Shown: positions 1,466-16,811, counted from the stretch's first letter. The stretch is DNA of 45,487 nucleotides from Desulfobacteraceae bacterium (GCA_050050615.1 JASFTV010000002.1:1-45487); one strand, 5' to 3'. A program made the numbers and translations. Notes: generated by a model not told the origin, from the sequence alone.

Positions 1466-1711
1466 ATATGACCTTACCTGCTGGCCCTATCGACGCGCCC
1501 GCATGTCAAACCAAGCCCGGTTTGACAATGATCCGGGACACACATGCCGGGGCATAGCAACGCCAAGGATCAGAGACAATCCTTTCATAGCTCAGTTCTC
1601 TTTGTGCACAGGAATATGTAATCTCCGACCTTCTCACCATCAAACAAATTATCATAGCGATTTGCCGTGTGGCATTCCTAAACAGTATACTTCTCTCTCT
1701 GAGTTATCCCC

Positions 1712-2536
1712 TCAAATACTTTCGCTGCGGATTGCTCTAAAATCCTTCATGCCCTTTCGGGCTAGAATAGCAAAAATGCCGGGAAAATATTTGTACAACC
1801 TCCACAGCACATGCGCATGGGGGGTAACCACGACGATAGCCCGATTGCGGGAAACCCCTTCAAGGATAATCCGCGCCGCTTTTTGTGAATCCATGATCTT
1901 CACTCGAATTGACTGCAACAACTTCTCTCTGTCTGCGCCGAGCAGCGTCCCCGCATAATGAATGCCGGTTTGGATGAATCCCGGGCACACGACGCTTATC
2001 TTGACACCCAGTGCCTCACCTTCCGCACGCATTGCGGTAGAAAGTCCGACAACAGCATATTTTGTGGCAACGTAGGAACTTACAGACGGGAAGGGAGCAA
2101 GGCCCGCCAGGGAAGAAACGTTCACAATATGCCCGAAACCCTGCCTGACCATCACCGAATAAGCGGCCTTCGTTCCATAAATAACGCCCCAGAGGTTGAC
2201 ATCGACAATGCGACGCCAGTGCTCGAGATTCATGTCACGTACCTCGCCAACGATTGCGATACCTGCGTTGTTGAACATGTAATCGAGGCGGCCGTTTTCC
2301 TCTGCCGTCTCTTCAATGAGCTTTTTTACACTCTCTGCTCGGGTTACATCAAGGTTACTGGCGATTGCAAGTCCGCCAGTTGCAGCGATCTCATCTGCAA
2401 CCTGCCTCGCGCGTTCGGTTTCGATGTCTGTCACATGCACGATTGCGCCTCTTTTACCGAGCTCAAGGCAAATGGCTCGTCCGATTCCTGAAGCACCACC
2501 CGTCACAATAGCTGTTTTATCCCTGAAAATATTCAT
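1712..2536 (-). CDS. SDR family oxidoreductase
   Basis: 274 aa with the TGGASGIGRAI cofactor motif, NNAG, and a YxxxK active site (YVATKYAV). Confidence 0.85.
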   Translation of the reverse strand: MNIFRDKTAIVTGGASGIGRAICLELGKRGAIVHVTDIETERARQVADEIAATGGLAIASNLDVTRAESVKKLIEETAEENGRLDYMFNNAGIAIVGEVRDMNLEHWRRIVDVNLWGVIYGTKAAYSVMVRQGFGHIVNVSSLAGLAPFPSVSSYVATKYAVVGLSTAMRAEGEALGVKISVVCPGFIQTGIHYAGTLLGADREKLLQSIRVKIMDSQKAARIILEGVSRNRAIVVVTPHAHVLWRLYKYFPGIFAILARKGMKDFRAIRSESI

Positions 2537-2744
2537 GATAGCAATTCCCCACTGCTTAGCGTAGTCATCAAAGCCTTAATCGATTGTGATTGAAACCGAT
2601 TTCGAAAGAGGATATCTCATCAGCTGTGTCCGGTTAGAATTTTGCATAACCCCGTTTGATGGCAAATGGGTAGTCCGCGGAAATCTCTTTTCAAAAACGA
2701 AAAAGTCGGTGCCCGGGAGCCGGCATTTGCGTAACAGCCCATGT

Positions 2745-2958
2745 AGTAGAGCGTTTCCTTATTAACATGTCATTTCGACCCCTTCGAGTGCCTCAGAGCC
2801 TGCCCTGCCTATCGCCCTGAGTTCATCGAAGGGAGCCTGCCGAAGGGGTAAACTCCGGGAGAAATCTTGGTAACCCATTGGCATTGTAAGATTTCTCCCC
2901 CCGTTTGCACGGGGGTCGAAATGGCAGTATTGCCACAGTACTTAGGAAACGCTCTACT
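2745..2958 (+). repeat. MITE-like structured repeat, full-length copy 1 (214 bp)
   Basis: 17 bp terminal inverted repeats: AGTAGAGCGTTTCCTTA (2745-2761) and TTAGGAAACGCTCTACT (2942-2958), 16/17 complementary. Nested IRs: TCATTTCGACCCC / GGGGTCGAAATG, and GGGAGAAATCTT (2857-2868) / AAGATTTCTCCC (2888-2899). Related copies at 24814, 29629, 21134 and 43703. Confidence 0.75.
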
Positions 2959-2987
2959 GGGCCTGATACCCTTTCCAGGTACAGCCG

Positions 2988-3632
2988 CTACATCAAAATG
3001 GATTTTGCCAGATCCGCCCCCAGTTTCGAGGCCCTAACCAATGTTTTCTTTTTCTCCTTAACTTTCCCTCTGTCAAAGACGCCTAAAACAGCCAGCTCTC
3101 CTATTATCTCATACCCCAACGCTTTGATTGGAAGGCGCATAGCCTCGAGCGTAAACCCCATATCTTTTTTGTTTACCTGCTCACAAACCGCTATGATGGC
3201 CGCTTTTCGCCCCTGCCCTGCCAAACGGCTCGACCATCCTCTAGGGCGGTTGTCATCAAAAACATAAAAGCAATACAGACGGTCAATAAATGCTTTCATC
3301 CATGCTGTGACATTGTAGTTGTGAGTCGGACATACGAGAACGAGACCTTGAGATTCCATTATTTTAGGATACAATAGACTCATCCCGTCATTCAGGCCCG
3401 AACAGATTTTGTCTTTCCTGCATTTTTCACATCCTATGCAGGGTTGAAATTGATAGTCTCTAAGGTGAATCTTTTCGGTCAAAACGTTGCTCTCTCTGGC
3501 CCTGTCTAAGGCCTGCTTTAGGAGCACATCTGAATTCCCATTTTTCCTTGGGCTACCGCCAACCCCAATGATCTTGGGCTTTGGAAAATGACCGGAAAGA
3601 CTGTTTTGCTTTGTTTCATGCTTAGCATTCAC
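2988..3632 (-). CDS. iron-sulfur flavoprotein / NADPH-dependent FMN reductase family protein
   Basis: 214 aa. Flavodoxin-like N-terminus IIGVGGSPRKNGNSDVLL plus a cysteine cluster CIGCEKCRKDKIC. GTG start with GAGGAGGAAGAG upstream. Confidence 0.65.
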   Translation of the reverse strand: MNAKHETKQNSLSGHFPKPKIIGVGGSPRKNGNSDVLLKQALDRARESNVLTEKIHLRDYQFQPCIGCEKCRKDKICSGLNDGMSLLYPKIMESQGLVLVCPTHNYNVTAWMKAFIDRLYCFYVFDDNRPRGWSSRLAGQGRKAAIIAVCEQVNKKDMGFTLEAMRLPIKALGYEIIGELAVLGVFDRGKVKEKKKTLVRASKLGADLAKSILM

Positions 3633-3680
3633 GGTTTACTCTTCCTCCTCTGTTCCTGGAATAGATACATGCGTACACGA

Positions 3681-3929
3681 TCACCCACTCTTTTTTTTGA
3701 TGATGCAAAAAAGCTTGTGGGTGACTATGACGAGCACGTTTGACAAGACGATGAGCGTAAAACATGCAGCTACAATGACGCCTAGCCAGAAGCTAGCCGC
3801 TAACGCTAAATCATAACCCAATAGCCTGCCAAATATTACGCCCGCAAAGAATAGGACGAGTTCTGCCAGGAATAAGACAAACAGCAGTAATTTGAAATGG
3901 TCCCAGGTCGGATTAGTTTCCCTCCTCAA
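3681..3929 (-). CDS. hypothetical small membrane protein (TTG start, uncertain)
   Basis: 82 aa with three hydrophobic helices and no recognisable family. It overlaps the repeat-derived tail of the ogt ORF. Confidence 0.3.
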   Translation of the reverse strand: MRRETNPTWDHFKLLLFVLFLAELVLFFAGVIFGRLLGYDLALAASFWLGVIVAACFTLIVLSNVLVIVTHKLFCIIKKKSG

Positions 3930-4646: not shown

Positions 4647-4782
4647 GTTGAACGTGTCGGGATGAAGTCCAAGCGGCGGGGTTTTCGAAACCCTAAAGCC
4701 TTTATAGTGAAGCCCCTTAGCATTTCTCCCTGTCAGCCCCCCCCACCGGTTAGCGGGGCAACTCCCTGCGCGGACGTTATCT
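4647..4782 (-). other. candidate attC (136 bp) after the 124-aa membrane-protein cassette
   Basis: Minus strand reads AGATAACGTC...GACACGTTCAAC, with an R''/R' pairing AACGTC / GAC(A)CGTT. The R' box abuts the ogt ATG. Internal palindrome GGGTTTCGAAAACCC. Confidence 0.4.
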
Positions 4783-4795
4783 ATGATGGCGAGAA

Positions 4796-5170
4796 CTAAA
4801 CATACATTCCTAGCAGCACCAAAATAGAAGAGGTCGTGAAGATCACCGGGCAAAGCTTAAACGGCAAAAAGCTGATTTTGAATCCTGTCAACAGAGAGAT
4901 CCCTGACAGTGTGTTGAGCATTATGAAGCAAGTCCAATAGATGGCTTTCGAAATCATAGTGGTATGGTCTATGTATGTTACGGAAGCAATGATAGCTCCT
5001 ACGAAGACGAGGGAGATACCTTCGATGATCCATTCCATAGTGATGATTCTTCGATTATCGAGAGAAATGTCTCCGAAATCTCTAACGACAGATCTCGTTG
5101 GGAATAGGTGAGCCACTCCCCAGAAGAGGCAAAGGGCAGCACCCAGGTAAAGCAAGATTTGATTAACCAT
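4796..5170 (-). CDS. hypothetical integral membrane protein (cassette-borne)
   Basis: 124 aa with about 4 predicted TM helices and no recognisable family. Confidence 0.5.
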   Translation of the reverse strand: MVNQILLYLGAALCLFWGVAHLFPTRSVVRDFGDISLDNRRIITMEWIIEGISLVFVGAIIASVTYIDHTTMISKAIYWTCFIMLNTLSGISLLTGFKISFLPFKLCPVIFTTSSILVLLGMYV

Positions 5171-5357
5171 GAAGACCCCCGGAGTGTCGATGGATTTCGC
5201 TTAGCATGATCCACTATCCCTATCACCCGGCACCGCCAAAGAAAAGATCAGCCGCCCCGAGCCTGTCGAACGATCGGCTGCATCGGATGGCAGAGAAAAT
5301 TATGAATAAAAAATGCTTATTCTACGGTTCAAGGGGAGACGGCATGTAGGTTACATG

Positions 5358-5468
5358 CCCTAACCAGGCAAAAATGTCCCTTTTCGAGGGTGGACCTCGA
5401 TTTTATTGCTGCTGGCCAATTGATTGAAAATAGGCGAAATGCCGAAGAATACGCCCTATCTGTTTCGG
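5358..5468 (-). other. weak candidate attC after the histone-fold cassette
   Basis: Minus strand CCGAAAC...GTTAGGG with 5/7 end complementarity. Inner arms pair poorly. An ATAGGGCG/CGCCTAT hairpin plus a T-run could equally be a terminator. Confidence 0.25.
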
Positions 5469-5478
5469 ATATGATGGC

Positions 5479-5676
5479 CTACATAAAGTCTCTATCCATT
5501 ACGGTCTTGCGGCCATCAGCTTTTGCTTTCTCGATTGCTTGATCGCACAAATTGCGAATGGTGTCCGATAACGCCGGTGCAACATTGCCCGCCGTATTCA
5601 TTCCGGACACCGAACGGATATACTTCTTGAGTTTGGATACAACCACCAGTACCTCTTTTTCGCCGTGAGAGCTCAT
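5479..5676 (-). CDS. bacterial histone-fold protein (DUF1931 / HBb-like singlet histone)
   Basis: 65 aa: VLVVVSKLKKYIRSVSGMNTAGNVAPALSDTIRNLCDQAIEKAKADGRKTVMDRDF. This shows the helix-loop-helix-loop-helix pattern ending in the histone-fold hallmark A..GRKTV...D. Perfect AAGGAGG RBS upstream. Confidence 0.7.
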   Translation of the reverse strand: MSSHGEKEVLVVVSKLKKYIRSVSGMNTAGNVAPALSDTIRNLCDQAIEKAKADGRKTVMDRDFM

Positions 5677-5710
5677 CGTATTCCTCCTTTTCTGTGTTGT
5701 TAACGAAAGC

Positions 5711-5783
5711 AGCTAACGATCGAACGCAGCTGTGGGCAACCAGCGAAGTTGTTTGCGCTTCGGACCGCAGCGAGTGGTTAAAC
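5711..5783 (-). other. attC, CCACTCGCTGC family (73 bp)
   Basis: Minus strand GTTTAACCACTCGCTGCGG...CACAGCTGCGTTCGATCGTTAGCT. R'' GTTTAAC fits RYYYAAC. Central stem CGAAG/CTTCG. Confidence 0.55.
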
Positions 5784-5843
5784 ATCCCTGTGTTTTCTTA
5801 ACCACCTCCGCCGATCCTTGGCGCCCATTTCCTTGTTCTTTGC

Positions 5844-6050
5844 TCATAGCTCAAGCTCTTTCATCGTATCAGCCGTCGTGAGAATAGGACCTGATGTATC
5901 CTGCAACTTATGCAGTGCCACATCCAAGTCAGGTGATTCGGACAGATATGGTTCCAAAGCCCTTTGAACACGGTGAGACTTGGGGCTCTCTGTTTCTTTA
6001 GCGATATCAAAGAGTTTTGAGGCTATCTCGTCAGGGATCCTTATGCAAAT
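5844..6050 (-). pseudogene. ribbon-helix-helix antitoxin-like ORF lacking a canonical start codon
   Basis: My translation: (I)CIRIPDEIASKLFDIAKETESPKSHRVQRALEPYLSES..., an RHH beta-strand plus two helices. The frame is open from 6089 but has no ATG/GTG/TTG before codon 32. An ATGA-overlapping 20-codon stub follows and runs into the attC at 5783. Confidence 0.4.
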
Positions 6051-6145
6051 AGCCTTGCTCCTACGCGGCCTCCAATTTATTTTCTTGTATTACCTTGTAG
6101 TCGTTGTGAGTAGGAAATGCAAGGTGTTTTTCGAAGGCTACAAAA

Positions 6146-6252
6146 CGCCAACGTTCAGCCGCACACCAAAGCCCGCTGTAGCCCCGGCGAAAGCGGGCCT
6201 GTCTCGCCATAGCTTCAGCGATGGCGGATCCCGCTGCAGAGTGTTGTTGGTA
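6146..6252 (-). other. attC, same family (107 bp, branched)
   Basis: Minus strand TACCAACAACACTCTGCAGCGG...GCGGCTGAACGTTGGCG. Two internal perfect hairpins: GCCCGCT/AGCGGGC and CGCCAT/ATGGCG. Confidence 0.45.
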
Positions 6253-6333
6253 CGTTTCATCTTAGATGATAAACTTCACCTATCCCTAATGGCGCAACCT
6301 TGATATCTGATTCTGCAAAAACCACGCGCCATT

Positions 6334-6380
6334 CACCCCCGCCCTTCCGGACGGGGCTCTCTGCCGCGGTTTTGGCAGAT
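6334..6380. repeat. REP-B copy 2 (inside an ORF-less cassette)
   Basis: CACCCCCGCCCTTCCGGACGGGGCTCTCTGCCGCGGTTTTGGCAG matches 4033-4080 and 29588-29634. Confidence 0.7.
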
Positions 6381-6496
6381 TTCGAACCTCTCTGGTAAAA
6401 ATGGGCGTTTCTATGAAGGAAGCGCATGGCTATAGGCCAATGGCGTATAGCCATCAAGATATTTTCTAGGAGATTGTAAACTGAAGGAATTCATCT

Positions 6497-6613
6497 GGCT
6501 AGCGGCCGAGCTCAGCGGCGGGGCACGTGCGTGGCTAATAATCGCGCTTTCGCGATCAGTACTGAAAAACGAAAAAACTGTTTGCGCCTTCCGACTGCAG
6601 CGAGTGGTTAGAC
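6497..6613 (-). other. attC, same family (81-117 bp, R' end ambiguous)
   Basis: Minus strand GTCTAACCACTCGCTGCAG starts 5 nt after the TfoX stop codon. R' is either ATTAGCC (6533-6539) or GCTAGCC (6497-6503). Confidence 0.5.
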
Positions 6614-6618
6614 CGGAT

Positions 6619-6948
6619 TCACTTCGGTGGTAGAGAACTTGCGAATTCCCTGGCCTGATTCAGCCAACTCGCTAAGTCATGATCTGCCCGGAATCCATCC
6701 TGCTCCACCATGACCCATCCTTTCATTGGTTTCCCGGTGATGTCAAATGGCCTCACATGTGGCAATGCTAGAGCCTTATTGCCGTTTTCCTCGCCAAGTC
6801 GAAGGATGAGGAAGTCTTTGTAGACACCGCAGAACATATTTCCATTCAAAAGGTGGCACACGCCCCCGAACATACTCTTGTGATCGGTATTTTTCCAGCT
6901 CGATATCATTTTCTTTATTCTAGTTTCAATTTGTTTATTGTACGGCAT
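6619..6948 (-). CDS. TfoX/Sxy N-terminal domain protein (cassette-borne)
   Basis: 109 aa. MFGGVCHLLNGNMFCGVYKDFLILRLGEE is the TfoX_N pattern. GGGAGG RBS. Confidence 0.7.
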   Translation of the reverse strand: MPYNKQIETRIKKMISSWKNTDHKSMFGGVCHLLNGNMFCGVYKDFLILRLGEENGNKALALPHVRPFDITGKPMKGWVMVEQDGFRADHDLASWLNQAREFASSLPPK

Positions 6949-6976
6949 GCTCTAACCTCCCGAGTTAAATTCAGAT

Positions 6977-7066
6977 CTTCAACAGTTTCGAGCTGATCGG
7001 CCCCGCAGAGTTACCCCACTTGATTTTCGCTCCTCACGCGGGGTCCACTCCAGCGAGTGGTTATGC
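6977..7066 (-). other. attC, same family (90 bp)
   Basis: Minus strand GCATAACCACTCGCTGG...CAGCTCGAAACTGTTGAAG. The TAA stop of the hydrolase gene lies inside R'' (7061-7063). Confidence 0.55.
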
Positions 7067-7981
7067 CGATCCATTCCCCGAAGAATATTTCGTCCAATGT
7101 TTGAGCAGACAAGTCGCCACTTGCTCTGGCTGTTCCTCTTGAACAAAATGGCCAGAATCAGCAATTAGATTAACGGATACCGTTGCCCCTCTCTTTTCTA
7201 GCTGTTTTTCCAAATCCCTGCAAATCCATGGGGGATTAAAGCGATCATTCTCCCCCCAGATGAGACAGATGTCATTCCGATATGCATGGTCTGAACGAAT
7301 GGGGAGTTTGATTTCCCTGGAGGAACTCACCCCTCTTAGAACTCGGGTTTTCTGACTGATGAGTGACCGTCCCATATTGCGATAAAGCTTGGTCCAATAG
7401 CGCGTTGTCTCCTGATCCCGAAACATCTGAAGATATAAATCTCTGGCCTCTGGGGCGAGACTCATTTTATTCACAAACGCCCCCAACATACCAAACTTGA
7501 AAAATCTGTCAGGGATCAGGCGGAAGACAACTGTGGGCACAAATGGAATATTGAAGAAAATCATGTGCCACATCCCAAGCACATCGGTCTTCCAGTAATT
7601 CGTATTCATTATTGCCAGAGATATCAATGTCTCAGGCCTAAACCGGGATACATGCAGCGCGATTGCACCTCCCCAATCATGACCTACCAGATGGTATCGC
7701 TGCAGCTGGAGTTTCGAGATGATCGTGTCATGATCGTAATAGAACCGATTTAGGGAGGCCTCTCCAGCCCTTGAACTCTCACCAAATCCACGCAAATCAT
7801 ACACAATTAGCCTGTAGGGCTGGATTTCATCAGAATCAAATGCGGCAATCACGGGGTGCCAGCATATGTGTGTTTCAGGGAAACCATGAACAAAGACGAT
7901 TGGCGTCCCTGACGTGCAGTTATCCCAAACAACCAGCGTTGCGCCGTCATCAGTTGTTATTGCTTCTCTGGTGAATTCCAT
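7061..7981 (-). CDS. alpha/beta hydrolase, epoxide-hydrolase-like
   Basis: 306 aa with the HGFPETHICW and GHDWGG motifs. Confidence 0.8.
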   Translation of the reverse strand: MEFTREAITTDDGATLVVWDNCTSGTPIVFVHGFPETHICWHPVIAAFDSDEIQPYRLIVYDLRGFGESSRAGEASLNRFYYDHDTIISKLQLQRYHLVGHDWGGAIALHVSRFRPETLISLAIMNTNYWKTDVLGMWHMIFFNIPFVPTVVFRLIPDRFFKFGMLGAFVNKMSLAPEARDLYLQMFRDQETTRYWTKLYRNMGRSLISQKTRVLRGVSSSREIKLPIRSDHAYRNDICLIWGENDRFNPPWICRDLEKQLEKRGATVSVNLIADSGHFVQEEQPEQVATCLLKHWTKYSSGNGSA

Positions 7982-8002
7982 GGATTGGCTTCAAAAAATG
8001 CT

Positions 8003-8052
8003 CTAAATAAAGAAAGTTAAGAGTGCCCAAATGTTTGTAAAACTGAGCACCC
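8003..8052 (-). terminator. putative rho-independent terminator downstream of the PD40-like gene
   Basis: Minus strand GGGTGCTCA-N14-TGGGCACTC (7/9 pairs) followed by TTAACTTTCTTTATTT. Confidence 0.45.
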
Positions 8053-8087
8053 TTTGACCCAAACCTTCAGAGTTTCTAAAACTTACC

Positions 8088-9752
8088 TTATTCCAATTCC
8101 ATAACCCTCCACCGCAGCTTTCTTCCGACTCTTACCCCAAATGCTAATTTTGTACCATCGTTATTAAGAGTGATTATGGGGTCATTGGTTACATAGGTAG
8201 TTTGAGATGGACCCAATTTAACAGAAAGTCCGCTAATCAGCTTTAAACGGTCCGTTAGCCTGACAGCCAGCCTTCCGCCTAAACAAACTGCGATACCACC
8301 TACAAAATCATATGGTGGGCTGATTTGATCATCCACGACCACATAGGCTTTGTCGTCTTTATATCCAACATAGGCAACTTTCTCACCATCGGGACTGAAA
8401 ACCAGGGTAGGATTTTTTCGCTTAACCGTGAGTTTAAGTCGGCCTAAGTTGATATTCGATAGAGCAATCTCGTCGAATGCCTCGCCCTTGTGGCCGTCAA
8501 CAACGACAAACCTCTTGTCCCCTTGACGGGCAATATAGGCAACATGTTCGCCATTGGAGCTAAAAACCGGGGCCCAAACCCCATCAAACAATTCACCTTT
8601 CTTATCGCCTACGACAATGAAAACCTTATCATTTTGCTCGGCACAATAAGCCACGGTTTTCCCATTTGGACTGAAAACAACGGACCATATATCATCAAAT
8701 GCTTCGCCCTCTTTATTTCCTACCACAACAAATTCCTTATCATCCTTTTCAGCGCCATAGGCTAGAGTTTTCCCGTCCGGACTAAACACCAGCGGCCAAA
8801 CATCATCGAATGCTTCGCCTTCCTTGCCGTCGATAACAACAAACTGGTTATCCCCTCGACGGGCAATATAGGCAACATGTTCGCCATCGGGGCTAAAAAC
8901 CGGGGCCCATATATAGTCATACTTTTTCCCCTGATGATTACCCACTACGACAGACATTTTTTTGTTTTTGGTGATACGATAGGCGACCTTTTTGCCATCG
9001 GGGCTAAACACTGGTGACCATGACCTTACATTGTCGAATGGCTTCCCCTTTTTATCTCCCACCACTACGAAGCATTTCTCGCCTTCTTTACCAAAATATG
9101 CTACCGTACTCCCAATGGGACTGAATACCGGAGGCCATACATAATCAAACATCTCGCCTTTCTCATTGTCTACCACAACACACCATTTTTTGCCTTGTCT
9201 TGCCGTATAAGTGAAATGACTACCATCAGGACTGAATAAAAAGGAATAAACTTCATCAAATTGTTCACCAGTGTTATCTCCGACGATGACAAATTCCTTT
9301 TCCCCCTGTTTGGCGGAATAAGCCACTGTTTTTCCAGTCGGGCTAAAGACTGGAAAAGATACCTTATCAAATTTCTTGCCCTTTTTATCACCCCATACGA
9401 CAAATTCTTTCTCCCCTTCCTTTCCGACATAAGCTACAGTTTTGCCATCTGGACTGAATACGTGAAAATCAAGTTGAACCCCTGAAATATTTTCCGGTAA
9501 TGTGGCTAATAAACTTTCTTGGAAGCTGACCTCTGTCTCCTGGTTTTCTGGATAGGCTTTTCGCCCGCAAGATATTTGCAATACTAAAATTATTCCCAAA
9601 AGCACAAAGGACAATTTCCCAATTGATCTAGCAAAATTTGGCTTTTTTCCATTTTCAGCTTTAAGGAAATTGATAGAGTTACAATTAGCCTTTTCCTCGT
9701 CTTTAACTTTTCGAGATTCTTTCTGCGAAAGATAAGATTGATCGTATTGCAT
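8088..9752 (-). CDS. PD40/beta-propeller-like repeat protein with N-terminal membrane anchor
   Basis: 554 aa. Contains ten tandem ~37-aa units of the form VFSPDGKTVAY-x6-KEFVVVGDKKGExFDxVW. Hydrophobic segment LSFVLLGIILVLQISC near the N-terminus. Confidence 0.75.
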   Translation of the reverse strand: MQYDQSYLSQKESRKVKDEEKANCNSINFLKAENGKKPNFARSIGKLSFVLLGIILVLQISCGRKAYPENQETEVSFQESLLATLPENISGVQLDFHVFSPDGKTVAYVGKEGEKEFVVWGDKKGKKFDKVSFPVFSPTGKTVAYSAKQGEKEFVIVGDNTGEQFDEVYSFLFSPDGSHFTYTARQGKKWCVVVDNEKGEMFDYVWPPVFSPIGSTVAYFGKEGEKCFVVVGDKKGKPFDNVRSWSPVFSPDGKKVAYRITKNKKMSVVVGNHQGKKYDYIWAPVFSPDGEHVAYIARRGDNQFVVIDGKEGEAFDDVWPLVFSPDGKTLAYGAEKDDKEFVVVGNKEGEAFDDIWSVVFSPNGKTVAYCAEQNDKVFIVVGDKKGELFDGVWAPVFSSNGEHVAYIARQGDKRFVVVDGHKGEAFDEIALSNINLGRLKLTVKRKNPTLVFSPDGEKVAYVGYKDDKAYVVVDDQISPPYDFVGGIAVCLGGRLAVRLTDRLKLISGLSVKLGPSQTTYVTNDPIITLNNDGTKLAFGVRVGRKLRWRVMELE

Positions 9753-9833
9753 GACTCTATCCTCCTATGCATGTTGGTTTGGCCGGCGTTTGGGCCGCGT
9801 CGGACGAAGCTAATCTATTGATATTCAAATCTA

Positions 9834-9869
9834 TTCGAATAAAACCTTATGAGTAAAGGCTTTTTCGAA
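9834..9869 (-). terminator. imperfect palindrome / weak terminator after the SnoaL-like gene
   Basis: TTCGAATAAAACCTTATGAGTAAAGGCTTTTTCGAA. On the minus strand the stem is followed by TTTTATT. It lacks AAC...GTT ends, so it is not called attC. Confidence 0.3.
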
Positions 9870-10406
9870 CTATCGAGAAGACCTTCTAACAAACCATGCA
9901 ACAAATCGCTGTACTGAAACTCCGATTCGACCTTTTAAAGTACCCGAGACGGGCTTAGGGGGGAGAAAACCGAGCTGCTGAGCCAAATGCATTCCATCAA
10001 AACGAGTAATACAACGGCATAGTTTTCCCTCACGAAATTCCATAAGGTCAAACCCGTTGATTTCAAACCTTCTCCCTGTAGGGGCAAATCCTGGCGGATC
10101 GAGAGGGCCAAGCATCGTACCTGAAATTTTCCAGGGCTGGATAATCTTTGTCGGGTCTGTGGATATGAATGGTTCACCTGTGGGAATATATTGAAAGTCA
10201 GGAATCGCTCGCCATAGGGAAAGGGCAAATTTTTTCACGGCATCATGACCACATGCAGGTTCTTCCATTGCAGGATCATCCCAGAATATATCTTCTGTGA
10301 GGTATGATAGAAGTTTTTCGAGGTTTCTTGCATTCCAGGCTTCCGAAATCATGCGGACATGATTGCTATATTTTTCAATTGCCTTAGGATAAGACATATC
10401 AGTCAT
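9870..10406 (-). CDS. SnoaL-like / ester cyclase family protein
   Basis: 178 aa. NTF2-like pattern: ISEAWNARNLEKLLSYLTEDIFWDDP ... GRRFEINGFDLMEFREGKL. Confidence 0.65.
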   Translation of the reverse strand: MTDMSYPKAIEKYSNHVRMISEAWNARNLEKLLSYLTEDIFWDDPAMEEPACGHDAVKKFALSLWRAIPDFQYIPTGEPFISTDPTKIIQPWKISGTMLGPLDPPGFAPTGRRFEINGFDLMEFREGKLCRCITRFDGMHLAQQLGFLPPKPVSGTLKGRIGVSVQRFVAWFVRRSSR

Positions 10407-10445
10407 GGGATGCCTTTAAGATATATTGCCTTGAAGATTTACCTC

Positions 10446-10507
10446 ACATAACGGTCGGCATAAGGTGCGGCGGTTTTCTGCCGTCGCCCTTAATGCCGTT
10501 GTTATGC
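10446..10507 (-). other. attC (62 bp, canonical)
   Basis: Minus strand GCATAACAACGGCATTAAGGGCGACGGCAGAAAACCGCCGCACCTTATGCCGACCGTTATGT. R'' GCATAAC and R' GTTATGT with paired inner arms. The TAA stop of the upstream ORF lies within R''. Confidence 0.8.
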
Positions 10508-11233
10508 GGCATCATAGAAGGAGAATCTTATAACGTTGAACTCACAACCATCAATGCAAGTACCACAGAGAATGCATTCAGTATTTTCCATTTTGTTGGT
10601 CTTTACCATCCTTTCAACAGGAAGGCTCATTGGGCAGTTTTGGGTACATGTATGACAATGGTTGCATTTCTCGGAATCCGCTTTTAGGTGTAGTGAAGCC
10701 CACTTTAAACTATTCCTTATTTTTCTCCCTAATATCATAAATGGAGCCATCCAACATAAATGATGGCAGAATGACCTATTCCCAAAAACAAAAGAGGGTA
10801 TTACTATTAGGAAGATAAGAACGCAAAGATAAGCTATGAGAGCGCTTACATCTCCTATTGAAAAGCCGTATCTAGTCTGGTAAAGAAAATCTATTTTCTC
10901 ATAACCACCACGTCTGATTGCTAATAGCACGATAGCACTGATCCACGGGACCCAAATTATCCATTTAATATAATCGCCCTTTGTTACTTTTGTATTTCTT
11001 GCCAAAAAGATTGCCTCCTGACACCCTGCACCAGGACAAACCCATCCACAGTATGCCCTGCCAAGAACAAAAGCACTAATAAACATAAGCAAGAACATAA
11101 TAAAGCTACCATTTATAATACCATTTATGGTGGATTGAATGATGACAACAGGCGACAGATAATAGAAAATTGCAGGAAATAGAAAAAATGAGGATAGAAT
11201 CATTCCCTTTCTCAATTTTTGTCTGGTTTTCAT
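10502..11233 (-). CDS. 4Fe-4S-binding polytopic membrane protein (NapH/YccM-like)
   Basis: CGWVCP motif, two CxxCxxCxxxCP clusters (CNHCHTCTQNCP, CILCGTCIDGC) and several TM helices. I start it at MKTRQ (11233) because the upstream 26 codons overlap the attC. Confidence 0.7.
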   Translation of the reverse strand: MKTRQKLRKGMILSSFFLFPAIFYYLSPVVIIQSTINGIINGSFIMFLLMFISAFVLGRAYCGWVCPGAGCQEAIFLARNTKVTKGDYIKWIIWVPWISAIVLLAIRRGGYEKIDFLYQTRYGFSIGDVSALIAYLCVLIFLIVIPSFVFGNRSFCHHLCWMAPFMILGRKIRNSLKWASLHLKADSEKCNHCHTCTQNCPMSLPVERMVKTNKMENTECILCGTCIDGCEFNVIRFSFYDAA

Positions 11234-11263
11234 TTTCTTCCCCAGTAAAATGATAAGATCTAA

Positions 11264-11338
11264 GCATAACGTATGAGCTAAGTGGCGTTTGCAGAAGCGC
11301 AGCGGATGCAAACGCCCAACTTGAGCGAATTGTTAGAA
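11264..11338 (-). other. attC (75 bp, canonical)
   Basis: Plus strand GCATAAC-gtatgagctaagt-GGCGTTTGCA-N13-TGCAAACGCC-caacttgagcgaatt-GTTAGAA. It has a 10 bp perfect central stem and paired imperfect arms. Confidence 0.75.
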
Positions 11339-11570
11339 ACCCCAAACCATCCAATTTACACAATCGATCAAAACATCATTCAGATTGGCAATGATTCCGA
11401 TTCAATATCTTTCTTAAGCAGCACAGATTGTATACAACCGATAAACTTGGAATTCTCTAAAATAGGCGTTTTCAGGCCCTATATCGCCCTTTCTAACCCC
11501 AGAATGGCCTTCATAAGGAAAAACTGCTCTTATCGATTAATTTGAATAATGCTCTTTTTGCCCCAAAAAA

Positions 11571-11636
11571 GCTCAATATACAGCCTAAATAAGGGCGCTT
11601 TTCTGCTTTTTCTTCAATAGTTTTATATAGTTAGCG
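11571..11636 (-). other. candidate attC (66 bp) after the MBL-fold gene
   Basis: Minus strand CGCTAACTATATA...TATATTGAGC. The ends pair, R' is degenerate (ATTGAGC), and the inner arms are weak. Confidence 0.3.
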
Positions 11637-11662
11637 TGGCCTGACCCCATCTCCTCCATCTC

Positions 11663-12397
11663 CTAAGGTGGTCCCCCTTTTAGGTCCTCCAGGCAGTAGG
11701 TTTCGCCGATATCCAATGGTATCAGCTTGATATCCGATCTTGTTTCTATTTCGTCTGCGAGCTTTAGAGGATCGACCTCGAATCTGTGCATAGGAATCAA
11801 AACCTTAGGGTTAATCGCGATGGCTGCCTCCGCTGCCTCCCCAATATCCATCGTAAATGTCCCGCCGATAGGAAGCAATGCTACATCTACGCCCCCGAGT
11901 TCTCGCATCTCTGGTATGAAATCGGTGTCCCCCGCGTGATAGATCGTCTTGCCGTCTATCACAATCAAATAGCCAATTCCTTCTCCTTTGCGATGCTGCT
12001 TTCTGGTAGAACTCCCTTGTTCGGTGTTGTAGGCTTGCACCGCCTCTATGACCATGTTATCAAGACTTAACCTCTCTCCTGGCTTAATCGTTTTGATGTC
12101 CTTGCTCAATTCTTTAGTGCAGCGCTTGGGAGCTATAACCAACGTGTCTGGGCGCCTGAGCCTCTCTACTGTAACGCGTTTACAATGGTCTTTATGGTGG
12201 TGTGTCACCAGAATCAAATCAGCCTTCTCCAGCTCACCAGGCAGTCCATCAATTGGGTCAGGCCACGAGGAAAACTCGATTCTCTTTGGGTAATCTTTGA
12301 AGTAGGTCTTTAAGTAGGCCGGATCAATAAATATGAGCTTGTTCTGAGCGCTTATTTGAATCCAAGAAGGTGGGAACCATTTGATGGATATTGGCAT
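11663..12397 (-). CDS. MBL-fold metallo-hydrolase
   Basis: HHHKDH (HxHxDH) motif. Start set at MPISIK (12397), which is preceded by AGGAGGAAGAG. Confidence 0.8.
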   Translation of the reverse strand: MPISIKWFPPSWIQISAQNKLIFIDPAYLKTYFKDYPKRIEFSSWPDPIDGLPGELEKADLILVTHHHKDHCKRVTVERLRRPDTLVIAPKRCTKELSKDIKTIKPGERLSLDNMVIEAVQAYNTEQGSSTRKQHRKGEGIGYLIVIDGKTIYHAGDTDFIPEMRELGGVDVALLPIGGTFTMDIGEAAEAAIAINPKVLIPMHRFEVDPLKLADEIETRSDIKLIPLDIGETYCLEDLKGGPP

Positions 12398-12436
12398 TCT
12401 CTTCCTCCTCATATTCGATCCCTTGGACAAGCGGCC

Positions 12437-12555
12437 GCCCAACGTCAGAGATCAGCGGCGGCTACGGGACGTCCGCTGGGGTGATTTGGTTGGGCGGCGA
12501 ATTCCTTTTTTCTCATCTTTTTTCGCCAACCCCAAGTTTAACTTCGTCGTTATTG
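12437..12555 (-). other. attC (119 bp)
   Basis: Minus strand CAATAACGACG...CTGACGTTGGGC. R' GTTGGGC fits GTTRRRY. The TAA stop of the CocE/NonD gene lies inside R''. Internal stem CAGCGG/CCGCTG. Confidence 0.5.
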
Positions 12556-14499
12556 GGCAACTGGGAGTTGGATGAATGATGGGTGATTCATGCTTCTCAG
12601 CAATTGGAGCCTTGGCGCCGGATCGATGACTGGCGTATCGAAGTTGTCGGCATCCGCGCAAACAAGCGAAATGCGTATCCTGCTTCCCTTATCAAACCGG
12701 TACGAGGTTGGCAGCAGGCTGAAGGCCAACTCAACCGGTTCCCCGGCCGGGATTGGCGCCAAGTCACTCTGATAATGAGAGTGATAGGGTAGCCCCAGAT
12801 TATCGAAAGGCGCCTGGCATAGCTTGCGATGAGAAGACCGGAGCGTCCCTTCGGTGACGTAGGTGGACTTGCCATCGCGATCCACTTCTTCCAGATACAC
12901 GAATACATCCAGGTCCGGAGCATCGGTCGTGAGCCAAATGTGCGCCACTGGATGCCCCGTGACCTCCACGTCAGTCTCCAGGGGAGAAGTGGTATAGGTC
13001 AATGCCTTTTCGTCATTGGCGTGCATATCGGGATAATCATGTACCTCGTCGACAGCAACCCAACGCGACTTCTTGCCGCTCGTTGTTGTATAATCCACAG
13101 TGTAAACATCAAAGGCATCGGGCGCCGGTGGAGATTCTGTGCTCAGGAAGCCGTCATTGACCGAGGCGACGCTCCTTGTCTTTCCTTTGCTGAAATAGAA
13201 TGGCTTCATTTTCTGCTTTGCCAGCGGCCATTGGTTGGAATTCTGCCAGGCTTCTTTTTCAGGTGCCCCTATAACGTAATAGTGAATCGGCGGTTCATCC
13301 ATAATGCCATTGTCAATGCCCTTTAGCCAGTAGTCGAACCAGCGCTGTGCTTCAGCCTTGTAGTCCAGGTCGAATTGACTTGCGTCCATGCCGCTGTGAT
13401 CCAGCGGGCGAACAGTCAACCGCTTGGGCACGGTGAGATTGTGGTACCACAAAAACACGTCACCCAAGAAGATGTCATACCAGCCGGTCGTCATATAGAC
13501 GGGTATGCCTGACCGGTTGACGCGTTCTATGAACGGGTAAAGCGATATTAACTTCCAAAGACGCATTCCGTTCGGCAAGATACTGTCGCGGAACGGGTAT
13601 TTCGCGGCCTGTGTGGCCATTGTTTCCCCGTCAGCCGAACCGCTGCGTCCCTGACGGGCCTGGGCCAGCAATGCGCCATCCTTATCGCTGTCGACGGGTG
13701 TAGCAAGTTTCTCGAGATATGGGACCACCCTAGCGAAAAAAGAGTTGAAGGCTTTGTTGTATACGCCACCCCGATACTCCAAGGCTTCGTACAAATCCAA
13801 CTGGCTTGATGCGGGAAAGATCGCTTTCAGGTGCGGGTTGCCCGTGCTGGCAGCGGTAAATTGACACCAAGCTTGCTGGGATTCCCCGTACATGCCGATG
13901 TTTCCGTTGCACCAGGCCTGGGATGCGATCCAATCCAGGATTTCGTTCTCCTCCCTGGCTATTGCCTCCATGCTTTGCTTAGCAATGCCGAAGGAAGCGC
14001 CTGTTCCGGGCCGCTCTACGACGATGACGGCATAGCCATGCCTGACCATGTTTCGCAACCACTTGGTTCTCATGAGGGGATCCATCAAGTGCCCCTTGTC
14101 GGAAAGCCAATAGCGGATGCGGAGCGCGGCCTTTTCATACCACTTCAAGTCTATAAAAAAGGTAATAAGGTTTTTTCCGTCTTTGTCGAAGATGGTAAAG
14201 GTGCGCAGGTAGGGTGTGTATTTGAAGAGAACGGGTAAAGGCTCGCTGGCCGGAACACCTTTTTTGGTCGGGAGAATGAGGTCGTATGCCAACCTCGTTC
14301 CATCTGACAGCGTCAGATAATCGGAAATGCGCTTGTTGCCATCATAAATTGCTTCGGAATAACCTTGATATTTCCCAAATTCTGACATTTTCCCTTTCCC
14401 GACTATTTTCTTAAAAGTGAAGAAGAGCGCGATCACCAAGATGACTGCAATAATGGGATACTTCATTTTCGCCCTGATCAGTTTGCCCATTTCTTTCAT
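12550..14499 (-). CDS. CocE/NonD family hydrolase (S15 X-Pro dipeptidyl-peptidase-like) with N-terminal TM anchor
   Basis: 649 aa. Nucleophile region IGMYGESQQAW, and a PepX_C-like tail DLDVFVYLEEVDRDGKSTYVTEGTLRSSHR. Confidence 0.75.
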   Translation of the reverse strand: MKEMGKLIRAKMKYPIIAVILVIALFFTFKKIVGKGKMSEFGKYQGYSEAIYDGNKRISDYLTLSDGTRLAYDLILPTKKGVPASEPLPVLFKYTPYLRTFTIFDKDGKNLITFFIDLKWYEKAALRIRYWLSDKGHLMDPLMRTKWLRNMVRHGYAVIVVERPGTGASFGIAKQSMEAIAREENEILDWIASQAWCNGNIGMYGESQQAWCQFTAASTGNPHLKAIFPASSQLDLYEALEYRGGVYNKAFNSFFARVVPYLEKLATPVDSDKDGALLAQARQGRSGSADGETMATQAAKYPFRDSILPNGMRLWKLISLYPFIERVNRSGIPVYMTTGWYDIFLGDVFLWYHNLTVPKRLTVRPLDHSGMDASQFDLDYKAEAQRWFDYWLKGIDNGIMDEPPIHYYVIGAPEKEAWQNSNQWPLAKQKMKPFYFSKGKTRSVASVNDGFLSTESPPAPDAFDVYTVDYTTTSGKKSRWVAVDEVHDYPDMHANDEKALTYTTSPLETDVEVTGHPVAHIWLTTDAPDLDVFVYLEEVDRDGKSTYVTEGTLRSSHRKLCQAPFDNLGLPYHSHYQSDLAPIPAGEPVELAFSLLPTSYRFDKGSRIRISLVCADADNFDTPVIDPAPRLQLLRSMNHPSFIQLPVAQ

Positions 14500-14544
14500 C
14501 CTTTTTAGCTCTTAGTAATGCCGCCTGTTCGTGCCGCGCAGCAG

Positions 14545-14616
14545 CGCGAACGCTGCCCTTAACCATCAGGGGGGAGCGGCAGCGAAACCCAGTCTGCGTT
14601 CAGGGGTTTGTTCGAT
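14545..14616 (-). other. candidate attC (72 bp, branched) of the vapBC cassette
   Basis: Minus strand ATCGAAC...GTTCGCG (5/7 complementary ends) enclosing two hairpins: AAACCC/GGGTTT and CGCTGCC/GGCAGCG. Confidence 0.4.
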
Positions 14617-14634
14617 GTAGCGCTCCTATAGTAG

Positions 14635-15042
14635 CTACGGGCTGATCAATCTGACTGACGGAAAATAGGTACGATATCTGGATACGTCTCGTGTGATTAA
14701 CTCCATATCAAGTATGGCCGCTTGTGCTCCAATATAGAAATCAGGTGAGGGGGACCCCTTTATTCCTCTACCCCTCCTGTGCTTTAGAAAAGCTTTTCCA
14801 GCCAAAAACAGAGCCTCTTTGGGAATTTCCAGCATCTGGAGACCGCTTTTGTTCAGAGCTGACTCCAAATCCTCTATCTTTTCAAAACCAATTGAGACTT
14901 CAGTATACACAATTGAGTTAATGTAGAGATCGGTATCAACGCTATATTCTGCCAATGCTGATTCCGACCAATCTGCCCAATTGGGATCATCAAGGAAAAT
15001 GTCGAGAATGACATTAGAGTCGACGAGAAGGCCCTTCATCAC
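14635..15042 (-). CDS. vapC: type II toxin VapC (PIN domain)
   Basis: 135 aa. LLVDSNVILD N-terminus typical of PIN toxins. 4-nt ATGA overlap with the upstream antitoxin. Confidence 0.8.
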   Translation of the reverse strand: MMKGLLVDSNVILDIFLDDPNWADWSESALAEYSVDTDLYINSIVYTEVSIGFEKIEDLESALNKSGLQMLEIPKEALFLAGKAFLKHRRGRGIKGSPSPDFYIGAQAAILDMELITRDVSRYRTYFPSVRLISP

Positions 15043-15266
15043 TCTGCCCTCGTTAAAGCCATAATCTCATCTGTTGTCATTTTGACGGTTGCAATGCCAC
15101 GTAATTTTTTGAATTTACGCGTTGCGATTTTACCCCCCTTTTTTTTCACTAAATATACACGGCCCCCCTTCTCAACAAAATCAATTTCTGTGGACGGCGT
15201 TATACCCAATTTTTCGCGAATGTGCTGAGGGATTGTGACTTGGCCTTTTATAGTGACTCTCATCAT
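15039..15266 (-). CDS. vapB: AbrB/SpoVT-type antitoxin VapB
   Basis: 75 aa. VTIKGQVTIPQHIREKLGI is the SpoVT/AbrB swapped-hairpin motif. GGAGG RBS. Confidence 0.8.
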   Translation of the reverse strand: MMRVTIKGQVTIPQHIREKLGITPSTEIDFVEKGGRVYLVKKKGGKIATRKFKKLRGIATVKMTTDEIMALTRAE

Positions 15267-15283
15267 TCAACCTCCAGTACTTG

Positions 15284-15299
15284 GTATTACTGGTAATAC
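15284..15299. promoter_or_regulatory. palindromic candidate VapB operator
   Basis: GTATTAC-TG-GTAATAC, a perfect 7+7 palindrome 18 nt upstream of the vapB ATG, flanked by further TATTACT repeats. Confidence 0.45.
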
Positions 15300-15551
15300 T
15301 ATTACTTATGCGGGGTAATGTCAATGCCAATTTGAGCCATCAACAATTACTATACAGAAAAATCTCTGTGAAAGACCATATATATTGCTTTTTACAGAAT
15401 TTTGCTCTATTGTTGTTGTATCACTTCGGCTGAATGATTTTGATCAACAGCGGAAAGAGTAAATGCGATCTATGTCGAACGGAATTTTCTGACCTTTAAC
15501 TTAATTTTATCTAAAATAATAAAATATAACTTATTAAAAATCAATCGAAAA
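15300..15551. promoter_or_regulatory. attI / divergent promoter region of the integron (exact crossover point not resolved)
   Basis: AT-rich 250 bp between the first cassette and intI. The minus strand has GTTATAT (15534-15540) and GTTAAAG (15494-15500), which resemble the GTTRRRY core and integrase-binding repeats. Confidence 0.4.
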
Positions 15552-16520
15552 ATGGCAAAAAGCCCACCAAAACTGCTGAACCAGGTGCGGGAGAAAATCC
15601 GGCTAAAGCATTACTCCATTAGAACAGAGCGGGCCTACGTTGCCTGGATCAAGCGTTTCATCTTGTTCCACAAGAAAAAGCACCTCCTGAGCATGGGGAA
15701 ATCCGAGGTTGAAGCCTTTCTCACCTATCTCGCCGTAAAGCGCAAAGTTTCCTCATCCACGCAAAACCAGGCCTTTAACGCCATCCTTTTCCTCTACAGG
15801 GACGTATTGAACAAGGATCTGGAGGGCAACGTCGATGCTGTTCGGGCAAAGAAACCGAAGCGATTACCCACAGTCATGACGCGAGAGGAGGCCATGGCTG
15901 TCATCCAATCCCTGCCCGGTGTGTATCAATTGATGGGAAAGCTCCTCTACGGCAGCGGGCTTCGTCTTATGGAATGTATGAGACTGAGGGTCAAGGATAT
16001 CGATTTTCAAAGGAATCAGATCCTTGTTCGCGATACAAAGGGTATGAAGGATCGGATCACGATGCTCCCTGAATCCGTGAAACCTGCACTCAGGGAAAAT
16101 CTGGAGAGGTGCAGAAAAATCCATCAAAAGGACCTGGAGGATGGTGGGGGTCGCGTCTACATGCCCCAGGTTTTGGCCAAAAAGTATCCAAATGCTGCCC
16201 GGCAGTGGGCCTGGCAGTATGTCTTCCCGGCAAAGAGCCTTTCCCAAGACCCAAGGAGCGGTGAGAGGAGACGCCATCACGTGCACGAAAATGCGCTTCA
16301 AAAAGCCGTCAAGAAAGTGGTTCGGCTTGCGGGTATCCATAAGCATGTGACCTGCCGCACTTTCAGGCACAGCTTCGCTACCCATCTGCTCGAGGATGGG
16401 TATGAGATCCGGACGGTCCAGGAGTTGCTGGGGCACAAGGATGTGAACACCACGATGATTTACACCCATGTGCTCAACAGGGTTGCCAGGGCGGTGAAAA
16501 GCCCGTTGGATACCCCCTAG
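15552..16520 (+). CDS. intI: integron integrase
   Basis: 322 aa, collinear with IntI1 as I recall it: [33 protein letters not shown]. It carries the IntI-specific insertion [35 protein letters not shown]. Catalytic region [37 protein letters not shown]. Confidence 0.9.
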
Positions 16521-16611
16521 GGTGGAATACTGGAACAGTGGAATAGTGAGAAAGCGGGGAACAAAGGATACGGAGACGCGAGGCAAAAGGGAGAGGACAA
16601 ATCCGTCCCGG

Positions 16612-16632
16612 CTTCCCTTTACGAAAGGGAAG
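16612..16632. other. perfect 9-bp hairpin downstream of intI
   Basis: CTTCCCTTT-acg-AAAGGGAAG with no U-tract. Possibly a terminator or protein-binding site. Confidence 0.3.
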
Positions 16633-16811
16633 AGCCCATGCAAAAATAGAGCATGAAGCACCGATTCGTTTTTGGACAAGAACGAGAGCAGGGGAGGTTA
16701 CAAAACGGCGTGTGGTTGGATGGATCTAAGAGGGCGCAGAAAAATAGTGTAGCATGAGTGCGGATGCGTGGATGGTTAACCCAGATCACAATGACAAACG
16801 GCGAATGACTA

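Follow-up and report, generated by a model that had tools for sequence, protein, structure and literature searches.

An lpxK-linked chromosomal integron in an uncultured Desulfobacteraceae bacterium whose integrase carries arginine at an otherwise invariant catalytic histidine

Introduction

The chromosomal integrons of Xanthomonas lie downstream of ilvD, as reported by Gillings and colleagues in 2005, and the superintegron of Vibrio cholerae holds roughly 180 attC sites in ~126 kb. Here we describe an integron of known type in a 45,487-nucleotide (nt) stretch from a Desulfobacteraceae bacterium (GCA_050050615.1 JASFTV010000002.1:1-45487), called the window throughout and meaning the whole of the DNA that was analysed. 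Chromosomal integrons are well described, thousands having been found by IntegronFinder, so the example in the window changes nothing conceptually. It is not one of the mobile classes 1-5 and is far smaller than Vibrio-type superintegrons; what is surprising about it is only mildly so, and is limited to an arginine at an invariant catalytic histidine of the integrase and to a three-gene unit. For Xanthomonas, one recent study describes lineage-specific inactivation or loss of the integrase gene intI, after which the arrays are stable (Colombi et al. 2025, PMC12444791).

The window very probably carries a vertically inherited chromosomal integron, located between lpxK and a gene for a 65-amino-acid (65-aa) histone-fold-like protein, with six attC-delimited units and a degenerate tail, and now probably inactive or strongly impaired. 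A preliminary description, made from the sequence alone, had proposed a complete, sedentary chromosomal integron, and this proposal held: intI and attC-bounded cassettes are present, and orthologous intI genes occupy the same locus in three relatives. According to the IntegronFinder definition (intI plus at least one attC; PMC4889954), the full-length intI and the attC sites of the window make it complete; the catalytic-site substitution in the integrase means that complete does not mean active.

An integron integrase divergent from the cassette genes

15552-16520, plus strand: intI, integron integrase, 322 aa (profile match and alignment to VchIntIA)

On profile and alignment evidence, this open reading frame (ORF) encodes an integron integrase. 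It scores 476.7 bits against TIGR02249 'integrase_gron', the NCBIfam model of integron integrases (cutoff 265), and falls well under the cutoff of the XerC and XerD models (134 bits, cutoff 335). VchIntIA (PDB 2A3V) aligns with residues 9-320 at E 1.7e-92, and the alignment runs through the IntI-specific insertion, so the extra segment that the preliminary description had recognised in this tyrosine recombinase is genuine. The class-1-type equivalog NF011946 gives 355 bits, under its cutoff of 435, and this score together with flanks devoid of mobility genes sets the element apart from mobile integron classes 1-5. Homologues in GTDB (80 loci) are 55-66% identical and spread over many phyla. 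Transcription of intI is divergent from the run of minus-strand ORFs, as had been described.

Six attC sites on one strand upstream of intI

attC sites were sought with a covariance model built solely from other genomes, the sites of the window being excluded. GTDB genomes searched with IntI provided the 80 intI loci, upstream of which textbook attC hairpins were numerous in a crude AAC...GTT constrained-fold scan. Such a scan of AAC...GTT pairs was dropped as a detector, long attCs not being separable from hairpins in coding sequence, and kept for harvesting seeds only. Model R1 came from an alignment of 28 clean attCs on the canonical fold, with an R stem, L stems and, in the 3' arm, two bulges of one base each; it found 154 sites in the 80 loci at E<0.01. 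Of these, 128 are on the plus strand, all upstream of intI; 24 have the known inverted arrangement, downstream of intI on the minus strand, and 2 are oddly placed. Their strand and position relative to intI validate the model, which was rebuilt as R2 from the 150 best R1 matches and applied to the entire 45.5 kb with filtering disabled. An Rfam gathering scan of the whole window found nothing, a result uninformative for attC because, to our knowledge, Rfam has no attC family.

R2 returned six sites, all on the plus strand and upstream of intI, at 6.5-14.6 kb (0.9-9 kb from intI):

14545-14616, plus strand: attC of cassette 1, 72 nt; 25.5 bits, E 5.6e-4; DNA fold z -2.5
12437-12495, plus strand: attC of cassette 2, 59 nt; 37.4 bits, E 8e-7; fold z -4.6
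11264-11338, plus strand: attC of cassette 3, 75 nt; 39.2 bits, E 3e-7; fold z -3.2
10446-10507, plus strand: attC of cassette 4, 62 nt; 53.4 bits, E 1e-10; fold z -5.5
6977-7066, plus strand: attC of unit 5, 90 nt; 19.7 bits, E 0.014 over the whole window and 0.003 within the array
6497-6613, plus strand: attC of cassette 6, 117 nt; 42.5 bits, E 5e-8

Five sites are thus at E<1e-3 and the sixth at E 0.014, which places at least one attC near intI on a single strand. On both strands of the 45.5 kb, nothing appeared at E<3 outside 5.2-14.7 kb or on the minus strand, and the next matches after the six are 5235-5291 (E 0.32) and 5711-5783 (E 2). The former was rejected as an attC: it has an L-box-like stem, lacks R boxes and is followed on the minus strand by TTTTCTTT, and we read it as a terminator-like hairpin downstream of the 65-aa gene.

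Pairing across the six attCs is kept in 81% of cells, with both partners varying in 13 of 22 pairs, a result matched by 0 of 500 shuffles and compared with 30-40% pairing in slid-register controls; as the alignment was fitted to the model, these figures are somewhat inflated. When the plus strand is folded, as the preliminary description had advised, a T and a G at unpaired consensus positions are bulged on the 3' arm. The plus strand would accordingly be the recombinogenic bottom strand, which fits the minus-strand orientation of the cassette ORFs. The sites have R boxes with AAC/GTT that pair with each other, L boxes that do likewise, and extrahelical bases on the bottom strand, as in site 12437-12495 with its R-box pair GCCCAAC...GTTGGGC and its extrahelical T and G on the 3' arm; an extension of this compact 59-nt site to 12556 was rejected. 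The exception is 6497-6613, whose 5' box, GGCTAGC, has AGC in place of the conserved AAC triplet (the top-strand GTT of R'). A second attC-like site with AGC for AAC (5' box GCATAGC) occurs in a relative, L094, at 3309-3394, with matching sequence around 5415-5500 of L091; the two AGC boxes may be a coincidence or a tolerated variant. The 13-mer CAGCGAGTGGTTA occurs in three exact copies, at 5768, 6598 and 7051, and by eye the 3' arm of the weak site 5711-5783 is much like that of 6497-6613.

The AAC...GTT palindromes reported between the ORFs are real attCs at the six R2 sites; at 4647-4783, 7982-8087 and 9753-9869 no attC was detected. The first of these had been proposed as an attC; a local search with the covariance model gave no match there either, and the segment, with a fold z of +1.6, fails to fold from end to end. 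As stated, the GTTATGC box (R'') of attCs 10446-10507 and 6977-7066 contains the stop codon at 10502 and 7061, respectively. The third example given, 12550, is not in an R'' box, since the attC after the S15 gene ends 55 nt away at 12495.

The cassette array

The array spans about 5702-15343 (~9.6 kb) and holds 9 intact ORFs in 6 attC-delimited units, followed by a decayed tail. The preliminary description had counted about 12 ORFs, each separated by attCs: the attCs exist, and the ORFs so separated are fewer. Its ~11 kb array starting at 4647 has to be shortened, since homology to the relative L084 puts the far end at ~5702. The units, with products assigned by Pfam unless noted, are:

14551-15343, minus strand: cassette 1, AbrB/MazE-type antitoxin (15039-15266) and PIN toxin (14635-15042)
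12443-14550, minus strand: cassette 2, S15 / X-Pro dipeptidyl-peptidase family hydrolase (12550-14499)
11270-12442, minus strand: cassette 3, metallo-beta-lactamase (MBL)-fold protein (11663-12397)
10452-11269, minus strand: cassette 4, 4Fe-4S membrane protein (10502-11233)
6983-10451, minus strand: unit 5, SnoaL-like protein (9870-10406), PD40 beta-propeller (8088-9752) and alpha/beta hydrolase (7061-7981)
6503-6982, minus strand: cassette 6, TfoX_N-domain protein (6619-6948; domain match)
5702-6502, minus strand: decayed distal tail with an RHH-like ORF (5844-6047), a hairpin (6140-6251) and the weak attC 5711-5783

Across the cassettes, 29-46 nt separate a start codon from the box before it, which agrees with the leader spacing first described. 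For the Fe-S and MBL ORFs, the TTG starts called mechanically overlap an attC (11264-11338 in the case of the Fe-S ORF), and the likely starts are ATG 11233 for the Fe-S and ATG 12397 for the MBL gene, 31 and 40 nt from the box. The ends of cassette 4, GCATAA+C and GTTATGC, are perfectly complementary. GC content is heterogeneous among cassettes, at 0.41 in the 9-11 kb region versus 0.52-0.53 at 12-14 kb, and a tblastn comparison of the window cassette proteins with the 80 other intI loci found no shared cassettes. Between the MBL-fold gene and its attC lie 325 nt (11339-11662) of AT-rich, non-coding sequence, with no minus-strand ORF of at least 50 aa; such dead space is unusual for a cassette.

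Unit 5 places three genes in one attC-delimited unit of 3.47 kb, exceeding the ~2 kb of the largest known cassettes (Cury et al. 2016, PMC4889954). The covariance model finds no attC in the gaps between hydrolase and PD40 genes (7982-8087) or between PD40 and SnoaL genes (9753-9869), where hairpins with a T-rich run behind them, on the minus strand, look terminator-like by eye. Unit 5 is either a multi-gene cassette or a set of cassettes fused through attC loss. PD40 homologues were searched to see if the genes of the unit travel together; the best match is only 42% identical and so permits no inference on the origin of the unit. In the tail, the RHH-like ORF lacks a start codon, and the hairpin 6140-6251, attC-like in its 3' arm, scores only 5.7 bits and is kept solely as a possible remnant.

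A putative attI region and a proposed recombination cycle

15344-15551: putative attI and promoter region, ~210 bp, conserved with L084 and L091 in a three-way alignment

The stretch conserved in the window, L084 and L091 starts directly behind a YAAC box (ATCAA|C at 15339-15344 in the window, CATAA|C in L084, GTCAA|C in L091), and the three sequences diverge to its left, on the cassette side. Such an onset of conservation is the pattern expected of an attI crossover point, which we predict at 15343|15344 (ATCAA|C). The three-way alignment favours this position over the two others that were considered and dropped, TCGAA|C at ~15480 and GTTGAAT between the antitoxin Shine-Dalgarno (SD) sequence and ATG. 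Promoter-like hexamers are present on both strands of the attI region.

Some features adjoin this region. Within cassette 1, a minus-strand promoter-like site at 15324-15296 (TTGACA-17-TAGTAT, 10/12 consensus) is overlapped by the perfect palindrome GTATTACTGGTAATAC at 15288-15303, just upstream of the antitoxin gene; together they look like an autoregulated toxin-antitoxin operator, and, compared with L084, the segment appears to be an insertion of ~31 nt. In the window and in L084 the first ORFs, otherwise unrelated, have CATCATTYAACCTCCA in common, a 16-nt match (window 15261-15276, L084 9577-9592) that includes two start codons, a GTTRAAT box and an SD sequence; the match falls beyond the predicted crossover, towards the cassettes. 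The first ORF beside the attI remnant of L084 (9240-9579, minus strand) is of CMD/AhpD type by eye and has an in-frame TGA within C-Y-P-TGA; this may be a CxxU motif, in a selenoprotein that was split into two short ORF calls.

By analogy with the integron family, IntI would bind the folded bottom strand of the attC hairpins (here the plus strand), cleave at AA|C and excise cassettes as circles, which would be reinserted at attI, at the predicted crossover. Reinserted cassettes could then be expressed from a promoter in the attI/intI region, and the toxin-antitoxin cassette next to attI, with its own promoter-like site, may serve to stabilise the array.

Arginine at a catalytic position and the present state of the platform

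In the alignment to VchIntIA, His267 (His-II of the HxxR motif) corresponds to Arg269 of the window IntI, encoded by CGC at 16356-16358, whereas the counterparts of Arg135, Lys160, Arg270, His293 and Tyr302 are all kept. In IntI1 numbering the catalytic set is R146, K171, H277, R280, H303 and Y312, and it is the H277 position that is changed. All 78 of 78 full-length homologues from the GTDB loci have histidine here. Among the best 120 matches in a collection of 5.8 billion proteins, 116 have the motif with histidine, in 3 the motif is not recognisable, and arginine occurs in the window protein alone; its nearest relative among these 120, at 81% identity, has histidine. Further changes at positions conserved in at least 95% of homologues are P45L and A207V, and VLAK stands where close relatives have the motif ALER. 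H277 belongs to the RHRY tetrad of IntI1 (PMC9229058), and binding to attI1 is reported to be lost when it is substituted (Messier and Roy 2001, as cited in PMC3146285).

Arg269, the AGC triplet in one attC, the three-gene unit without internal attCs and the pseudogenised distal cassettes together suggest that the platform is probably inactive or strongly impaired and no longer, or barely, shuffles cassettes.

It is also conceivable, if rather unlikely, that the integron is fully active, Arg269 being tolerated or compensated and the weak or missing attCs being atypical sites outside the reach of the model. The ORF is intact at 322 aa with the remaining catalytic residues in place, five attCs are canonical and score well, and the under-detection of attCs in relatives (see below) shows how limited the sensitivity of the model is in this clade. 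The cassettes, moreover, are entirely unlike those of the sister lineage, so turnover occurred after the split. Against full activity stand the histidine invariant in the 194 homologues examined, its place in the catalytic tetrad and the reported effect of its substitution in IntI1, as well as P45L, the change of ALER to VLAK, the AGC triplet and the pseudogenes of the tail.

Several points nevertheless weigh against an impaired, sedentary platform as we describe it. Arg269 is known from one assembly and identical Logan contigs of a single run, SRR11696247, so a sequencing error or a minor allele could account for it; an exact look-up of the window IntI had as its sole match a Logan contig of 1.5 kb with the same sequence as the window, which offers no population variation for comparison. 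Overall the protein is no outlier, its 3 differences at highly conserved columns comparing with up to 5 in other homologues, and for the window enzyme itself loss of activity through Arg269 is something we infer, its intI ORF being intact and five of its attCs excellent. R2 is our own model and not the curated attC model of IntegronFinder; its E-values are rough, and it under-detects attCs in L091 and L094. Sites 6977-7066 (19.7 bits, marginal) and 5711-5783 (10.7-15.4 bits) are weak. The attI crossover is drawn from only three aligned sequences, and attI sites share no general consensus; the promoter consists of consensus matches only (15544-15516 and 15324-15296, both minus strand), no commoner than in shuffles. 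Finally, the array is far smaller than those of classical sedentary integrons, its 6-8 attC sites in a lineage known from a single sample falling short of the >19 of large arrays, which together with the alternative of presence in 100% of the genomes of a species serve to define sedentary chromosomal integrons (Cury et al. 2016, PMC4889954).

Boundaries, synteny and history of the locus

The best LpxK homologues of the window are 67% identical and are labelled Deltaproteobacteria, Desulfobacteraceae or Thermodesulfobacteriota; metagenome contigs searched with LpxK yielded only a 31% relative. The host is an uncultured Thermodesulfobacteriota-like bacterium without a close relative. The integron is flanked by housekeeping genes, namely ddl, ogt, lpxK and those for lipid A and heptosyl transferases, and no transposase, Tn402-like or plasmid genes were found in the flanks.

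In the relatives L084-L086 (LpxK 65% and Ddl 76% identical to the window counterparts) lpxK is preceded by ddl, ogt, a GNAT gene, TfoX_N and a 66-aa gene on the minus strand, in this order. DNA homology between the window and L084 ends at 5701, the end of the 65-aa gene, and resumes at 16793, 19 nt before lpxK. Relative to the L084 backbone the insertion is, from this comparison, about 5702-16792, and as homology continues to 5701 the genes at 4796-5170 and 5479-5676 are outside it and are not cassettes. No direct or inverted repeats of at least 9 nt were found at the two insertion junctions. The preliminary description had set the integron between DNA-repair/housekeeping genes and the lpxK cluster, which is correct on the lpxK side; the outer boundary is the 65-aa gene (5479-5676, minus strand) and not ogt. 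The product of this gene has a weak histone-fold match (PF00808, E 0.0023, below cutoff) and is 89% identical to the 66-aa counterpart of L084. At 87-89% in L084 and L091, compared with 76% for Ddl and 65% for LpxK, this small core gene is conserved to an unusual degree, and the outer edge of the integron is marked by it. The lpxK-flanking loci L087, L089, L092 and L093, which lack an integron, gave no homologue of it.

L084-L086 lack a full intI, and in L084 the covariance model detected no attC. They retain the attI region and about codons 5-18 of intI: L084 keeps ~200 nt homologous to the window attI region and, in the right place and frame, PPKLLVQVRNEIRL, which matches window IntI residues 5-18. 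By these remnants L084 is the site of a deleted intI and not a naive empty site. A full intI is present between the 66-aa gene and lpxK, on the same backbone, in L091, L094 and L096, the first and last from two ENA samples and L094 from a JGI sample; the window lineage is known from one. The L091-type IntI is 75% identical to that of the window, which exceeds every GTDB match and is comparable with Ddl. The arrays of these three are near-identical across the samples, with a cupin in L094 at the position of a 174-aa ORF in L091; their IntI histidine is intact and their attCs are barely recognised by R2. Their cassettes (AF_1845, CGGC, glyoxalase, OsmC) are unrelated to those of the window. In more distant relatives, histidine kinase, waaA and lpxK occur with none of these features.

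Synteny in relatives had been named as a way to detect a conserved core gene order; the cassette order is not kept in them, only the platform is. Orthologous intI at the same locus with different cassettes gives direct support to the term sedentary, and the element is chromosomal and fixed in place as seen from the housekeeping flanks, the intI genes of L091, L094 and L096 and the remnant in L084-L086. On this comparative evidence the platform predates the split of the window and L091 lineages and stayed put while its cargo turned over.

A mobile integron, or a part of a recently acquired genomic island, is very unlikely. Parts of the array have a GC content of 0.41, unlike the flanks, and IntI homologues of 55-66% identity are scattered across many phyla, as such a history would allow; opposed to it are the housekeeping flanks, the absence of mobility genes and of junction repeats, the NF011946 score (355 against a cutoff of 435) and orthologous intI and attI at the very same locus in relatives that share just 64-65% LpxK identity with the window. 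That there is no integron at all, merely a Xer-like recombinase beside ordinary genes with terminators or REP-like (repetitive extragenic palindromic) repeats as hairpins, gains something from the earlier attC candidates that proved to be terminator-like hairpins or nothing (7982-8087, 9753-9869, 4647-4783, 5235-5291), and is, on the integrase profile scores and on six matches to an independent attC model with strict strand and position bias and covariation, already effectively refuted.

The neighbourhood offers further observations. In the window, 1004-3929 between ddl and ogt holds four minus-strand genes (3-methyladenine glycosylase, SDR, FMN reductase and an 82-aa ORF); ddl and ogt are adjacent in L084 and L091, so this is a second variable spot, without attC sites. 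In four lineages a TfoX_N gene lies close to lpxK, at a distance of a few kb (window 6619-6948, L092 8464-8796, L084 8413-8745, L091 2941-3276). The window copy, with attCs on either side, shares 70% identity with that of L092, where intI and attC are absent, and only 41% with the L084 and L091 copies, which sit outside the array; the gene may be an old cassette domesticated more than once. In the Acidithiobacillus loci L060, L064 and L068, lpxK is within ~3 kb of intI on the opposite strand; the integrons are unrelated, and the proximity is probably a coincidence.

Significance

The value of the locus is modest: it is a clean example from a poorly sampled, uncultured lineage, with a one-locus platform across deep divergence (LpxK 64-65%), complete cassette turnover and visible routes of decay. 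Its cargo extends the environmental cassette catalogue by an S15 peptidase, an MBL-fold protein, an Fe-S membrane protein, SnoaL, PD40, a hydrolase, TfoX_N and a VapBC-like toxin-antitoxin pair. Replacement of histidine by arginine at an otherwise invariant catalytic residue poses a cheap, testable question on the tolerance of IntI chemistry.

More speculatively, and with the odds clearly against it, the Arg269 IntI works without the canonical His-II, or the locus and its relatives show three first steps of integron fossilisation at one orthologous site. If true, the steps would be a catalytic-site substitution with intact attCs (window), eroded attCs with an intact intI (L091, L094) and deletion of intI (L084). 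They would form a natural series for cassettes becoming fixed chromosomal genes, with unit 5 as a true multi-gene cassette or as cassettes welded by attC loss.

Comparison with known systems

The Vibrio cholerae superintegron resembles the window in its integrase fold with the IntI insertion, the divergence of intI and array, the extrahelical bottom-strand bases and a toxin-antitoxin cassette. Unlike the superintegron, the window has 6-8 attCs in ~10 kb, its attCs are heterogeneous compared with the near-identical Vibrio cholerae repeats (VCRs), only the three distal ones sharing a 3' arm, and His267 of VchIntIA is replaced by Arg. With respect to clusters of attC sites lacking an integrase (CALIN) and intI-pseudogene elements, L084-L086 illustrate their proposed origin by intI loss (concept: Cury et al. 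2016, PMC4889954). Unlike a CALIN, the window retains a full-length intI, and L084, without detectable attC, is not even a CALIN.

The ilvD-linked integrons of Xanthomonas share with the window a platform acquired once, inherited vertically and held at one fixed locus, and small to medium arrays of mostly uncharacterised cassettes. Unlike them, the window has a host from another phylum (Thermodesulfobacteriota-like, from metagenomes only) and is anchored at lpxK instead of ilvD, and its inactivation would consist of a single catalytic-site substitution in an intact ORF, with no frameshift or truncation. The pattern described for Xanthomonas recurs here, intI being substituted in the window and deleted in L084-L086, and attCs being eroded in L091 and L094. 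The Xanthomonas integrons are the closest to the window in behaviour, combining ancestral acquisition and vertical inheritance with repeated, lineage-specific inactivation.

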